Shown here one piece after another: positions 2,155-63,336 of a DNA stretch of 64,000 nucleotides; positions within the stretch are counted from its first letter, which is position 1; the number at the start of each line of letters is the position of its first letter. Under the pieces are notes generated by a model, which was given only the letters and a program-made list of their open reading frames with translations, ran no database searches and was not told where the DNA came from. The position numbers and the translations under genes are program-made. This stretch comes from Promethearchaeota archaeon (GTDB taxonomy: Archaea > Asgardarchaeota > Lokiarchaeia > Sigyniarchaeales > SOKP01): contig JAHLWP010000006.1 in NCBI GenBank assembly GCA_019057865.1, positions 1-64,000 of the forward strand. Reading direction: 5' to 3'.

Positions 2155-3256
2155 ATGGCTTATAGCATTAAAGATGATGTTAATGAAATAATCAATCGTC
2201 TCGAAAAAGGAGATATCTCATTTAAAGAAAAAACAATCTTAGTTACTGGAGGGGCGGGATTTTTGGGCTCATGGGTGTGTGATGTTCTTGTTAAACAGGA
2301 TGCATATTGCATCTGTTTAGACAATTTATCATCAGGACAACCTGAAAACATATTGCACCTTATGGAAAAAGACAAATTTCGTTTTATTAACCACGATATT
2401 TCTTATCCAATATATTTTGGAATGAGTTATCATCCATTGGGCATTTGCATAGGGGATATTAAAAAAATAGATATCGTTATGCATATGGCAAGTCGAGCAT
2501 CTCCATTTGAATTTACAAAAGAACCAATATCAATATTAAGAAGCAATACTCTGGGAACTTTGAATACTTTAGGAATTGCGAAATTCCATAATGCCATGTT
2601 TTTTTATACAAGTACCTCTGAAGTCTATGGAAATCCACCAAAAGAAGCTGTTCCTACACCAGAAAGTTACTTTGGGCACGTAAATCTTGCTTAAGGTTTC
2701 CTACAAGAACGTATACCCAGTAGGTCCCAGAAGTTGCTATGATGAGTCTAAAAGAGCTGGAGAAGCATTTATTAAAGCTTATGAACTTCAACATCAAATG
2801 AGAACAAAAATCGTGAGAATTTTTAATACAGCAGGACCTAGAATACGATATGGACCTGAATTTGGAAGAGTTGTTCCCAACTTCATACACCAAGCCATAC
2901 ATGATGAAGATATTATTGTTTTTGGAGATGGGTCACAAACTAGATCTTTTATCTATGTAGTCGATGAGATTGAAGGGATACTTAAAATGGTACATAAAGA
3001 TGAAGCCATTGGAAATGTTATAAATTTAGGTAATAATAAGGAATATACAATTCTAGAATTAGCTAATATCATAAAAGATTTAACGAATTCTAACTCAAAA
3101 ATTATATTTAATCCATTACCTATTGATGATCCAGTCCGAAGGTGTCCTGATATACAAAAAGCAAAGGAAATTCTCAATTGGGAACCAACAACATCTTTAA
3201 GGGACGGTTTGAAAAAAACTATTGCTTGGTTTAAAGATAATGAGCGTAAAAGTTAA
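2155..3256 (+). CDS. UDP-glucuronate decarboxylase-like NAD-dependent epimerase/dehydratase (extended SDR), spliced: exons 2155-2683 + 2715-3256, 356 aa
   Basis: LVTGGAGFLGS, HMASRASP and STSEVYG lie in the first ORF; GPRSCYDESKR, RIFNTAGPR and GDGSQTRSF lie in the second. Removing 31 nt gives YFGHVNPVGPRSCYDESKR. Confidence 0.9.
2684..2714 (+). other. Putative BHB-type mRNA intron (31 nt)
   Basis: Central helix ACGT(2678-81)/ACGT(2709-12), bulges AAA and ATA, inner stem TCTTG/CAAGA, outer TGGG/CCCA with one unpaired C. Canonical cut positions restore the frame. Confidence 0.85.
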
Positions 3257-13573: not shown

Positions 13574-13972
13574 TTGGTTAGTAGATTGGAAATGGTTCTG
13601 AAGGAACTTAATGAAAATGGTAATTTTCGAGCATCATTATTTTCCACAGCAACAGGATTAGTTTTAGCATCTCAAAAAGCTGAAGATATTGATGAAAGAG
13701 TAATAGCTGCTATGGGTTCCCTATTAAGCGATGCAGCTTATAAAGCTGCTGAAGAAATGAATTTATCAGAAGTCCAAAGTATAAAAATTAAATATAAAGA
13801 TGATTATATTATCTGTCGAAATATTATTATTGAAGAGAGCAACACACAATTTATATTAGCAGTATTGAGTGTATTACCAGAATCTAATGATGTCGAAAAA
13901 TATTATGACCAATTGCTTGATTGGGCTGTAGATAATAGCTCCTCAGACCTTGAAAAGTTATCGACAATTTAA
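13574..13972 (+). CDS. Roadblock/LC7-domain protein
   Basis: GLVLAS...DERVIAAMGSLL pattern; 132 aa. Confidence 0.75.
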   Translation: MVSRLEMVLKELNENGNFRASLFSTATGLVLASQKAEDIDERVIAAMGSLLSDAAYKAAEEMNLSEVQSIKIKYKDDYIICRNIIIEESNTQFILAVLSVLPESNDVEKYYDQLLDWAVDNSSSDLEKLSTI

Positions 13973-14117: not shown

Positions 14118-14225
14118 ATGAAAGCAGCTTATATAGAAAAACATGGAAATTTAGATCAAATTCAAATTGGAGAACTCGAAAAGTTTTACTGGAGATTTGA
14201 TAAATTTTATTTTATTAATTGGTAA
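14118..14225 (+). pseudogene. N-terminal fragment of an MDR-family (quinone oxidoreductase/Zn-dehydrogenase) gene
   Basis: MKAAYIEKHGNLDQIQIGEL resembles MDR N-termini; similarity ends after about 20 codons. Confidence 0.55.
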
Positions 14226-14874
14226 AATTTAAAAACTTTTTCAGAAATTTGGTCCTCATAACCCCAATAAAAATGGTCTGCTCCTGAAATAATTTCATAT
14301 TGCTTAGGTTTAATGTAATACTTATAATGGTCAAAAAAGTTATCAAATGAGGCAACATTATCTCTGTCTCCTTGAAGAAAAAATTTAGGTTTTTCTGATT
14401 GGGAGAGTTCCTTGTAATTAATTCCCATTGAATCCCAAGGAAAAGAAATAGCTATATAACCTATTACTTTATCTGAATGATTAACAGCAGAACAACCTAT
14501 TGCAGCTCCATAAGAATAACCACAAATAATGATTTTTTTTAAATATTTCTCATTTACTAAAAAATTGATACAAGCTTGGACATCACTTAATTCTCCTCTT
14601 CCATTAGAATGAGTACCAGTTGATCTTCCAACAGCTCGGAAATTAAACCTGATACACGAAATATCATTTTTGATGAAAATATTAAAAATTGCAGATACAA
14701 CATTATTATACATATTCCCCCCAAATATTCCCTTTTTAAGTTTTAAATCCTTAAAAATTGAGGATGTGGGTGGACTAATAAAACAGAATAAGACTCATCA
14801 GAAGTTGATTGGTAGTATTCAGCTTCAAGTTTTACATCCTTATTAGTAATAAAAAATTTTTCAGTTTTAACCAT
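14207..14874 (-). CDS. Alpha/beta hydrolase (COG2945-like), spliced: exons 14874-14759 + 14726-14207, 211 aa
   Basis: Exon 1 reads MVKTEKFF...LLVHPHP; exon 2 reads FGGNMYNNVV, RFNFRAVGRSTG, GYSYG, GDRD, GADHF. Removing 32 nt gives HPHPQFGGNMYNNVV. Confidence 0.9.
14727..14758 (-). other. Putative BHB-type mRNA intron (32 nt)
   Basis: Central helix TCCT/GGGA, bulges CAA and ATA, inner stem TTTTTAAG/CTTAAAAA, outer CCACCCACA/TTTGGGGGG (7 of 9 paired). Canonical cut positions restore the frame. Confidence 0.88.
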
Positions 14875-14927
14875 AAATAGAATAAAGAACTGTATCTTTA
14901 TTAAAATTTCTTACTAAACCAATTACT

Positions 14928-16850
14928 TCATGATATGTAGCTTTGACTTAAGCCACTAATATAATTCCCTTCCTGGGTTATCAATTTTTTTGAAGTATAA
15001 GACATTTTTTCTATTTTAACTTTATTGATTAAATTGATTGTATTATGCCTAAATAAGGAGTATAATATATTTAAAGTAGGTGTTGTAATGCCATGCTTAA
15101 TGATGTCAGTTAAAATTCTTAATAAGTAATTCTCAGAAATATTCTTTCCTTGGTAAAGTAATTTATGAATTGGAGATTCAATTAATCCCTTTATGTATAA
15201 GCTATGAAAAGTGTAATTATATAATTCTTTCAATTCTATATTTACTTTTTTCAGCCAAGGGTTTAAATAAAGAATACTTTTTTTTCCTGGTGCTTTATCT
15301 TTTGGCATTGGAGTTTCAGGAACAAATTTTCTTAGTAACTCATAATTTCTTTTCCCCATTATATGTATAATATATCGATCATGCCATTTTGGATTTTTTT
15401 TACTTAATTCAATTTTTTCTAAGTTTGTTATAATTCCAAATCTTTTAAGTAGAAAATTTATACCAAAAACTAATCTCGGAGAGGAAGTATATAGTCTTAC
15501 TTTTATGTTTCTCATATTATTTGAATTCCTTATCTGTTCTTTTATTGTGGCATCACCTAGAATGAACCCTCTAAGAAATCCTTTGACACAATCTAATGGG
15601 GCATTATATATGAATGGAGGAATTTCCTTTTGATGTGCTAAAACAGGTTTCAATCCTATACCCTTTGTAAAAATACTCTTTACTAAAAGAGATTCATTTC
15701 TTAATTTGAAAGCATTTTTATAGTTTTCTCTTTTTTCTTGTTCCAATCGAAATTTAATTCCTAGGACTCTCTTTACTTTTTCGGATACTTTCATAATTAT
15801 ATTTTTATCTGTGCCACATGTAAGATTTATGATATTCATCGAACCCTCTGCGATATATTGACCTAAGATAAATCCAAGGTCAAAATCTTTTTTAATAAAA
15901 CGAGGAATATTAAATAAGTTGCTCTTTCCAAATGTTATGTATTCTTTTCCATTTATTTCATAAACAAATCCACAATCTTTCAAATCTAATGGATTATCAT
16001 TTACTAATACCTTAAGCTTTCTAGGCATTAAGATTCTATCTCCACTCTTTAATTTGAAAGCAGGAATTTTATAAATATTTAACTTATCATCTATACTGTA
16101 AATAGATTGATTTTGACTTAATAAAATATCATCAAATCTAGAAGATATTTTAATTATAGTGTTGCAAATTTTCTTACTAAAGCCTTCTACAGGCATTAAA
16201 CAAGAAATTCCATCAGATGACATGCTATAAGTACTAATATTATAATTATTCATTAATTCTTGACTTTCATATAACTTGTAAAGATTCAAGTCTTCAAGAT
16301 ATACTAAATAAAATTGATAAGGGTATTGATCATCTTGCTTTTGCTTTGGTATCATTGAATTTTTTAAAGATTTGATTGCTAATTTATTTTTAATTAATAG
16401 TCTTTCATATTGCTTAACTCCAAGATATGACCTTAATCTCTTCCTCATCAGACTTAGAGAAGGGACATTTTCTTCATCATAATATTTACTCATAAATCTA
16501 TGAGCTGTGATAAATGAGTGAAACTTTTTAACAAGCCAAATCCAATTTAAAATATCTTTTTTTGAAAATTTTTTATTGTTTTTTATCAAAGTTTTGATGT
16601 TTCCTTTATCAAACTCAATATTATCGTTATATTGATTAAAAGTATTAAGATCAACCTTTTTCGGTATAGTATTTACATTAATATCATCAAATTGATTTAG
16701 ATTTTCCTTGATTAATTTTACACCACAATTTATACAATAAAAAATTGGATCTTTATTTCCAGTAATTTCTTCGATCATTTTATTTGAAATGCTCCAACCA
16801 CATTCCAAACAATAATTTATTATTATATTTATAGAATTTTTTTCTAACAT
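14928..16850 (-). CDS. Free-standing intein-derived LAGLIDADG (DOD) homing endonuclease with N-terminal Zn ribbon
   Basis: CLECG...CINCG. Hint-like LKSGDRILMP. Block C FILGQYIAEGS, block E FLRGFILGDAT, block H TSSPRLVFGINFLLKRFGI. No terminal His-Asn and no C-extein. Confidence 0.8.
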   Translation of the reverse strand: MLEKNSINIIINYCLECGWSISNKMIEEITGNKDPIFYCINCGVKLIKENLNQFDDINVNTIPKKVDLNTFNQYNDNIEFDKGNIKTLIKNNKKFSKKDILNWIWLVKKFHSFITAHRFMSKYYDEENVPSLSLMRKRLRSYLGVKQYERLLIKNKLAIKSLKNSMIPKQKQDDQYPYQFYLVYLEDLNLYKLYESQELMNNYNISTYSMSSDGISCLMPVEGFSKKICNTIIKISSRFDDILLSQNQSIYSIDDKLNIYKIPAFKLKSGDRILMPRKLKVLVNDNPLDLKDCGFVYEINGKEYITFGKSNLFNIPRFIKKDFDLGFILGQYIAEGSMNIINLTCGTDKNIIMKVSEKVKRVLGIKFRLEQEKRENYKNAFKLRNESLLVKSIFTKGIGLKPVLAHQKEIPPFIYNAPLDCVKGFLRGFILGDATIKEQIRNSNNMRNIKVRLYTSSPRLVFGINFLLKRFGIITNLEKIELSKKNPKWHDRYIIHIMGKRNYELLRKFVPETPMPKDKAPGKKSILYLNPWLKKVNIELKELYNYTFHSLYIKGLIESPIHKLLYQGKNISENYLLRILTDIIKHGITTPTLNILYSLFRHNTINLINKVKIEKMSYTSKKLITQEGNYISGLSQSYIS

Positions 16851-17056
16851 TGTATTTTCTATATTAATTTTCTTTATATCTCATCTTGTTTCATAAAAAT
16901 TACAATTTTTACAAGTTTTATTTTTAAACAGTGTTATCAAACACTATAAAATAAAATTCTTTATATTTAAATAAAAAAAGAGAACATTAAGATTAACATA
17001 ATTTTATTTAATTTTTTATCTATAATAATAATACTACTTATAATTCTGCGATAAAA

Positions 17057-36002: not shown

Positions 36003-36085
36003 AATTCGTAAAATTAATTTAAAAACAAAAATTAATTACTACAATTTCCAATTTTCTATTTTTAAATTTATAATAATGGTGAAAT

Positions 36086-36361
36086 ATTATCGAAACGCAT
36101 AGATGGAATCAGAATCCGCTAATCAATTCAATATTAGACATACTTATTAAAAATAAGGGAGAAATTTTAGATAAAAGGCTTGAGGAACTCTTGAAAAAAG
36201 AATTCCCTTATGTTAATTCTTTAAATTTAGAAGAATTATTCATGAAATTAGAGAGTATGAACGTAGTAAATGTTTTTCGAGTTTCAAAAAATAAAAAAAT
36301 GATAGTTCTCAATAAACATAATACATCAATTAAGAATAGTGTAATGAATGATTTATTGTAA
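36086..36361 (+). CDS. Small winged-helix-like protein absent from the ORF track (non-canonical ATT/ATC start)
   Basis: 91-aa open frame (WNQNPLINSILDILIKNKGEILDKRLEELL...LFMKLESMNVVNV) fills the cdc48-herA gap; GGTGA lies just upstream. Confidence 0.6.
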   Translation: MIETHRWNQNPLINSILDILIKNKGEILDKRLEELLKKEFPYVNSLNLEELFMKLESMNVVNVFRVSKNKKMIVLNKHNTSIKNSVMNDLL

Positions 36362-63147: not shown

Positions 63148-63221
63148 TGGGCCAGGAGAGACTTGAACTCCCGACCTTCGCGGTGTAAACGCGACGTCAT
63201 ACCAAACTAGACCACTGGCCC
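63148..63221 (-). tRNA. tRNA-Val(TAC)
   Basis: GGGCCAG/CTGGCCC acceptor, TCGCG-TTTACAC-CGCGA anticodon arm, GTTCAAGTC T-loop; CCA not encoded. Confidence 0.95.
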
Positions 63222-63232
63222 TATATTTTAAA

Positions 63233-63336
63233 CGCTCAGGGTGGGATTCGAACCCACGAGTCCGTTCGGACACCGGTTTAGCAGACCGGCGCTAATGGCA
63301 CAATTATATTGTTCTACCAGGCTAAGCGACCTGAGC
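63233..63336 (-). tRNA. tRNA-Ser(GCT) with a 20-nt non-canonical D-arm intron (63294-63313)
   Basis: GCTCAGG/CCTGAGC acceptor, CCGGT-CTGCTAA-ACCGG, long variable arm. Intron motif TGGT-AGA-ACAAT...ATTGT-GCCA-TTA. Confidence 0.93.

Follow-up and report, generated by a model that had tools for sequence, protein, structure and literature searches.

A predicted 32-nt bulge-helix-bulge intron in an Asgard archaeal hydrolase gene and its probable arrival with a LAGLIDADG endonuclease cassette

The window analysed here, a stretch of 64,000 nucleotides from the genome of a Promethearchaeota archaeon (designated G000), carries on its minus strand an alpha/beta hydrolase gene interrupted by 32 nt and preceded by a gene for a free-standing LAGLIDADG endonuclease and, farther upstream, by the ancestral promoter of the hydrolase itself (Table 1). 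Gene callers report here just the second exon, as an ORF of 168 aa that opens only at ATG 14713. The initial annotation had held that the first 38 codons, starting at ATG 14874, were missing from the ORF track, and we found this to be correct, the missing exon (termed exon 1') comprising 38 codons plus 2 nt. In exon 2 the GYSYG nucleophile elbow and the catalytic-triad Asp and His are intact. The hydrolase adjoins a gene for a Roadblock/LC7-domain protein (13574-13972, plus strand), a family typical of Asgard genomes. Throughout, g1 denotes the genus of G000 and G012 its closest relative, while g21 and g22 are two other genera of the same family. Four metagenomic or strain contigs were also used: L059 (a contig of NCBI assembly GCA_019058075.1, from a strain 97.4% identical to the window over 2.5 kb), L067 (a JGI metagenome contig 99.1% identical to the window region), and L060 and L061 (metagenome contigs with an intron-bearing hydrolase and an endonuclease homolog).

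Table 1. Positions of the hydrolase gene parts, the inserted block and the second intron in the window.
Feature	Position	Strand	Remark
Second mRNA BHB intron (predicted), 31 nt	2684-2714	+	in gene 2155-3256, UDP-glucuronate decarboxylase-like (NAD-dependent epimerase/dehydratase-type)
Exon 2 of alpha/beta hydrolase (172 codons + stop), resident DNA	14207-14726	-	Pfam Abhydrolase_11, E = 4.9e-10
Exon 2: exon-exon helix strand	14725-14720	-	
Exon 2: third nt of bulge 2	14726	-	
BHB intron (predicted), 32 nt	14727-14758	-	sequence reading; identical in L059 and L067; homologous introns at the site in 33 orthologs
Intron: first two nt of bulge 2	14728-14727	-	
Intron: 3' strand of central helix H, GGGA	14732-14729	-	
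Intron: second arm of stem h'	14740-14733	-	
Intron: 9-nt loop	14749-14741	-	
Intron: first arm of stem h'	14757-14750	-	
Intron: third nt of bulge 1	14758	-	
Exon 1' (38 codons + 2 nt), cassette-borne	14759-14874	-	intact ORF ending VHPHPQ; diverged from all sampled exon 1 sequences
Exon 1': bulge 1 (third nt in the intron)	14760-14758	-	
Exon 1': 5' strand of central helix H, TCCT	14764-14761	-	
Exon 1': exon-exon helix strand	14770-14765	-	
Spacer from endonuclease stop to exon 1' ATG, 53 nt	14875-14927	-	equivalent spacers in L059, L060 and L061
Free-standing intein-derived LAGLIDADG homing-endonuclease gene, 640 aa, N-terminal zinc ribbon	14928-16850	-	Pfam LAGLIDADG_3
T-rich leader between old start codon and endonuclease ATG (left end of block)	16851-16996	-	G012 homology stops after the old ATG
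Ancestral hydrolase promoter and ATG (16999-16997), now 2.27 kb upstream, facing the endonuclease gene	16997-17056	-	94% identical to G012 up to the ATG

Read on the minus strand from 14758 to 14727, the insert and its borders follow base for base the canonical bulge-helix-bulge (BHB) layout that the initial annotation had proposed, in the order TCCT, bulge CAA, 8-nt arm, 9-nt loop, 8-nt arm, GGGA, bulge ATA and TTTGGGGGG. The elements it had listed are all present: the central helix H (TCCT/GGGA, 4 bp with one G-U pair) lies between the 3-nt bulges CAA and ATA, the intron stem h' consists of 8 perfect base pairs, and the exon-exon helix h forms five of its six pairs, with a C-U mismatch one pair off the bulge. 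An in-frame TAA is found inside the 32 nt, again as noted before. Canonical cuts at CA^A and AT^A yield in silico CCT CAA TTT GGG GGG AAT ATG, that is CCTCA joined to ATTTGGGGGG and read as PQFGGNM, with CATCCTCAATTTGGGGGG as the predicted spliced junction sequence; both the frame and the family motif HPHPQFGGNM, which is unbroken in intron-less orthologs, are restored as anticipated. When inserts of the same composition were shuffled between the real exons, a frame-exact BHB arose in 82 of 200,000 (a chance rate of 4e-4) and the 8-bp stem in none. By nearest-neighbour energies the G000 sequence folds best (-17.7 kcal/mol) into a close variant that has two 2x2 internal loops, the BHB itself scoring -11.8 kcal/mol.

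The same 32 nt recur unchanged in two further independent assemblies, L059 and L067, and are therefore not an assembly error. That an assembly or sequencing artefact produced the insert is only a general risk of metagenome-assembled genomes and can here be practically dismissed, given that these two assemblies are 97.4% and 99.1% identical to G000 around the insert and that about 30 other genomes carry homologous introns. We regard the reading of 14758-14727 as a tRNA-type BHB intron in the hydrolase pre-mRNA as supported at the level of sequence; splicing itself is inferred, there being no RNA data. A metagenome scan with a pattern fitting both spliced and unspliced G000 exons matched a single contig, which was unspliced DNA, and returned no spliced form. 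According to the mechanism that we propose, the junctions would fold into a helix, a 3-nt bulge, a 4-bp helix, a second 3-nt bulge and a further helix, the splicing endonuclease (represented by two EndA paralogs) would cut after the second nucleotide of each bulge, and RtcB would ligate the exons, rebuilding the HPHPQFGGNM codons, with the 32-nt intron probably freed as a circle.

BLAST with the intron region as query returned uninterrupted matches spanning the intron from two further genera of the family. In a census conducted both by open-frame length and by sequence, an intron at the same site or 1 nt off was found in 33 orthologs, namely in 25 genomes of g22, in 4 of 10 in g21, in G000 alone within g1, and in the contigs L059, L060 and L061. 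The census detected no intron in the orthologs of ten further genera, and the insert is absent from all of the approximately 50 scorable g1 orthologs other than G000, those inspected reading HPHP[QKE][YF]GG[ND]M without a break. Alignment to intron-less orthologs had been suggested as a check on the initial annotation; the first 19 same-genus orthologs inspected all (19/19) showed this uninterrupted motif. The introns fall into two types. Type A, to which G000 belongs, has the central helix UCCU/GGGA, the 5' bulge CAA and a length of 30-33 nt; type B is shifted by one nucleotide, with the helix CCUC/GRGG, a 5' bulge AAA or AGA and a length of 30 nt, and gives the same mature codons.

As G000 is the only carrier of the intron within g1, evidence for its conservation has to be borrowed from the other genera. 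BHB geometry was checked sequence by sequence in 32 of the intron-bearing orthologs. The 3-nt / 4-bp / 3-nt arrangement was kept in every one (32/32), cutting restoring HPHP[QE][FYM]GG each time, and all four central-helix pairs were formed in 30 of them and three of four in the remaining two. The inner stem is highly varied in sequence across the same set. In alignment A1, 93% of the cells were paired versus 72-76% when the 3' partners were slid, the stem pair at columns 21-40 occurred as CG (n=8), UA (n=8) and UG (n=5), and two exon-exon pairs covaried at synonymous third positions. Run without guidance, RNAalifold produced the central helix together with the 5' bulge and the stem. Single-sequence folding of eight orthologs gave the BHB or a structure near it as the optimum, G103 yielding a textbook BHB. 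In-frame stops persist in introns of 30 and 33 nt. The complete spliced ORFs are all intact (211-217 aa) with the exception of L059, and their median pairwise dN/dS of 0.18 places them, as far as such ratios can tell, under purifying selection. Interrupted for such a long time, the ORFs would not be expected to have remained intact without removal of the insert from the mRNA.

Removal at the RNA level is not the sole way in which an intact protein could be obtained, and one could imagine ribosomes that take off at the UUU following CAA and land at the UUU preceding GGG without translating the 32 nt. A 4-nt repeat, ATTT, indeed flanks the G000 insert and supplies these take-off and landing codons, and the 50-nt gap of phage T4 gene 60 likewise moves with a homing endonuclease (bioRxiv 10.1101/2022.08.31.505936). 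However, in most orthologs the take-off and landing codons do not match (CAA|...|UAU must give Q-Y), no stop codon follows the take-off codon, and the BHB pairing is conserved with compensatory changes, and we consider such translational bypassing very improbable. Frameshifting and a split gene yielding two peptides were also considered and rejected, as they leave the conserved pairing and the Q-Y junctions unexplained.

The genome of G000 contains two PF01974 matches (EndA paralogs, 104.6 and 70.5 bits), probably of the broad-specificity alpha-beta type, and one PF01139 match (RtcB, 561 bits). The EndA genes lie at C71:81890 and C69:38574, the RtcB gene at C75:110910. Its sole aIF2-gamma gene bears a 29-nt insert in the P-loop, at GHVDHG|KT (G000 C63, approximately 36,080-36,130; locus L081, approximately 1450-1500), with an AUGG/CCAU central helix, two 3-nt bulges, a weak inner stem and an in-frame TAA; the predicted cuts restore the P-loop. 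Because this essential, single-copy gene carries the BHB-like insert and would depend on the same process, splicing of mRNA must work in this genome.

A further predicted mRNA BHB intron lies nearer the start of the window. The initial annotation had compared the hydrolase insert with this "first intron", and the comparison holds: the 31 nt have a central helix ACGT/ACGT and bulges AAA and ATA, their removal restores GHVNPVGPR, and the sequences of the two introns are, as it had said, unrelated. The orthologs in G012, G056 and G063 lack this intron, being exactly 31 nt shorter and reading straight through. The gene that contains it is just 85% identical to that of G012, versus 94-95% for the adjacent DNA. 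Directly upstream, at 51-1928 on the plus strand, is a 625-aa ORF with repeated Cys-rich (zinc-ribbon-like) units, which has no NCBIfam match and no counterpart at the G012 locus. This ORF and the 31-nt intron may be a second pair of nuclease and intron; as the contig stops where the ORF begins, no upstream remnant is visible. Genome-wide, a strict-BHB scan with an ORF-bridging test produced 81 tight matches versus 94 for a decoy motif, and such a scan therefore cannot count mRNA introns without homology information. On the minus strand at 63233-63336, an Rfam tRNA match (48.9 bits) spreads over 104 nt next to a tRNA-Val (63148-63221); it is not reported by ARAGORN and probably contains an intron.

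Comparison with G012 indicates how the hydrolase gene of G000 acquired its present form. Identity between the two genomes is 94-95% in exon 2 as well as in the nadC region upstream, but the G012 homology ends exactly at the 3' splice site (14726) and restarts only at the old promoter and ATG (16999-16997), so that 113 nt of G012 (codons 2-40) correspond to 2,270 nt in G000. This block consists, in order, of the T-rich leader, the endonuclease gene, the 53-nt spacer, a foreign exon 1 and the intron. In nearly all relatives the hydrolase ATG immediately follows the old promoter, which is conserved. Exon 1 shares only 69% identity with that of G012, versus 95.5% for exon 2, and its donor could not be identified, identities to the sampled orthologs lying at 63-76% and none above 76%. 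Judged by these identities, the hydrolase gene is chimeric, its two parts meeting at the intron, and the alignment to G012 shows, as far as genome comparison can, that the intron entered this lineage inside a 2.27-kb block replacing codons 2-40 of the resident gene. An A/T-rich, TATA-like stretch about 25-35 nt upstream of the exon 1' ATG may be the cassette's own hydrolase promoter, which remains an inference.

A gene remodelled in this way need not be functional. The insert could be an unspliced scar or a disruption of a target site, and the G000 hydrolase a young pseudogene making at most a truncated protein from ATG 14713. The cassette arrived recently, so that decay might not yet be visible, a selfish cassette needs no working host gene, and RNA data are lacking. 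Moreover, L059 has TAG for TCG at codon 23 of exon 2 and five non-synonymous versus one synonymous change in its exon 1'; the hydrolase of that strain may be decaying, unless its TAG is a sequencing error, and on the strength of these changes the hydrolase may be dispensable or decaying in the young G000/L059 lineage. Several observations nevertheless make the pseudogene rather unlikely. The G000 BHB is canonical and fits the family consensus at every constrained position, and neither G000 nor L067 shows a disabling change in the hydrolase. The G000 branch of exon 2, with 4 synonymous and 5 non-synonymous changes and 94% amino-acid identity to G012, is no worse than the G012 branch. Exon 1' is intact and motif-bearing in three cassettes whose endonucleases have diverged down to 46-55% identity, and a comparable insert in the one aIF2-gamma gene of this genome must already be spliced.

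The 640-aa ORF of the block matches PF14528 (LAGLIDADG_3, E = 4.1e-13) and the intein endonuclease regions of 7qsu and PI-PkoII (PDB and NCBIfam entries); with a pN/pS of 0.35 and 0.24 versus two strain variants it is, by this measure, under purifying selection. Its three closest homologs in the protein collection (96%, 55% and 46% identity) are each followed by a 41-43-aa ORF equivalent to exon 1', a BHB intron and hydrolase exon 2, and the unit lies downstream of nadC wherever the contig is long enough to show it. Two of the homologous cassettes carry type B introns and G000 a type A intron, and the link between endonuclease and intron is therefore not a single inherited arrangement. Each endonuclease is preceded by the ancestral promoter and by what is left of the old exon 1, which survives in three states: in full in L060 (40 codons, alignable to intron-less orthologs up to CCTCATTT, the insertion site), as 12 codons in L061, and as the ATG alone in G000 and L059. 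A T-rich element like the G000 leader follows the remnant in L059, L060 and L061. From these remnants and breakpoints it follows that the unit as a whole occupies precisely the site of intron insertion. The right end of the cassette is always the intron and the left junction varies, a pattern expected from one-sided homologous repair of a break at the insertion site.

The stranded exon of L060 (201-323) is still an open frame of 42 codons behind the native promoter, ending HPHPHFM-stop. Pairing of its CCCT with the 3' strand (GGGG) that also pairs with the new exon is conceivable and would provide a long-range alternative 5' splice site.

From this arrangement we infer that the endonuclease would cut intron-less alleles at or beside HPHPQ|FGG and that repair would then copy the cassette in; with its recognition site split by the intron a carrier would be immune, and splicing would keep the host gene working. 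Cleavage at the insertion site with immunity conferred by the intron has only indirect support, from the endpoint of the old exon 1 in L060, and we rate this inference at about even odds. It would agree with collaborative homing (PMC2790892 and references 41 and 42 therein) and with the mobA-gene 60 cassette of T4 (bioRxiv 10.1101/2022.08.31.505936). The endonuclease could instead target another site, for example near the start codon, its link with a spliced intron being incidental and the intron playing no role in immunity or mobility. Its cleavage site is untested, the left junction in G000 is at the start codon, distant paralogs lie beside nrdD where no intron was seen, and 29 intron-bearing genomes lack the endonuclease; beside these 29 intron-only alleles tblastn detected no endonuclease relics, and the native promoter abuts the native exon 1. 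Against an incidental link, the endonuclease was found in three diverged lineages, always with an interrupted allele (the numbers are small and the lineages related), and near none of about 90 intron-less alleles. The presence of two intron types among the cassettes argues that these are not simply one inherited cassette, the stranded exon 1 of L060 stops at the insertion site, and the right-hand recombination break in G000 coincides with the 3' splice site. We consider a merely incidental association unlikely, though possible.

In G000 one of these distant endonuclease paralogs (C75:142634-145303, minus strand, 35% identity) lies in an open frame of 890 aa. It and its metagenomic relatives (loci L068-L074, 37-41% identity) adjoin nrdD, which encodes the anaerobic ribonucleotide reductase, on several contigs, and a mini-intron was seen at none of these loci. 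A 34-nt gap after nrdD in L068 was considered as a possible intron and proved to be an ordinary gene end; in L074 nrdD is in fragments.

Taking the evidence together, we put at roughly 0.8 the probability that the 32 nt are spliced from the hydrolase mRNA by EndA and RtcB, a step that is inferred, and that they arrived in this lineage with the endonuclease cassette. Whether the block 16996-14727 is also an active mobile element, of a kind undescribed in cellular organisms, is evenly poised. An intein-derived endonuclease would cut HPHPQ|FGG and be copied along with a substitute 5' exon, a promoter of its own and a target-destroying BHB mini-intron removed by the tRNA-splicing enzymes; this would be a general route of tRNA-type introns into the protein genes of Asgard and other archaea, and the intron-only alleles of g21 and g22 would have lost the endonuclease. 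Two aspects were not visible from the DNA of the window by itself, namely that the intron belongs to a family common to two other genera and that it arrived by a LAGLIDADG cassette. Selection has preserved the intron in three genera of the archaea most closely related to eukaryotes, and in one recent gain the boundaries of donor and recipient can still be read. The old question of how BHB introns without an ORF reach new sites thereby becomes directly testable, and arrival by cassette suggests how tiny tRNA-type introns spread into archaeal protein genes.

In the searchable literature, BHB introns in coding sequences were found only for cbf5 of Crenarchaeota, together with a 5'-UTR case in Haloferax (PMC7714728, PMC2738675), and no report of Asgard mRNA introns was found; a preprint of 2026 that deals with tRNA introns in Asgard archaea is silent on mRNA. 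Splicing of the BHB intron in the pre-mRNA of the pseudouridine synthase gene cbf5 has been shown experimentally (Watanabe 2002; Yokobori 2009, PMC2738675). Like it, the hydrolase intron is a short BHB intron in an archaeal coding sequence, dependent on tRNA-splicing enzymes and patchily gained and lost, but it occurs in the Asgard phylum, in another gene and as one of several introns of its genome, its splicing is inferred, and it moves with a homing-endonuclease cassette that supplies a replacement exon. In Haloferax volcanii HVO_1309 an mRNA is likewise a substrate of the archaeal splicing endonuclease, which is only predicted here; that BHB intron lies in the 5' UTR whereas the hydrolase intron lies in the coding sequence, and cbf5 was given there as the sole other known mRNA case (PMC7714728). 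In collaborative homing, a free-standing endonuclease cuts intron-less alleles at the insertion site of a neighbouring ORF-less intron; a free-standing endonuclease gene beside a gene with an ORF-less intron, and co-conversion with the flanking exon, are features shared with the present locus (PMC2790892). Collaborative homing nevertheless involves self-splicing group I ribozymes of phages and not a 32-nt protein-spliced BHB intron of a cellular archaeon, and the G000-type cassette brings an exon 1 of its own, the old one being left stranded.

LAGLIDADG endonucleases such as I-DmoI and I-PorI are encoded inside archaeal rRNA BHB introns and home into intron-less alleles. The enzyme of G000 is similarly an archaeal LAGLIDADG protein associated with a BHB intron; however, I-DmoI and I-PorI are encoded by an ORF inside a long rRNA intron, whereas here the ORF lies outside the mini-intron of a protein gene and the enzyme is intein-derived. 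The mobA-gene 60 cassette of phage T4 was reportedly described by Bonocora in 2011. There, as here, an endonuclease and a short non-coding insert in a coding sequence (50 nt in T4) move as one cassette (bioRxiv 10.1101/2022.08.31.505936), but the ribosome skips the gap of gene 60, whereas the gap in the hydrolase gene has the shape of a spliced RNA intron. The locus combines an intron of known kind, found in a new setting, with a new form of endonuclease-driven mobility.
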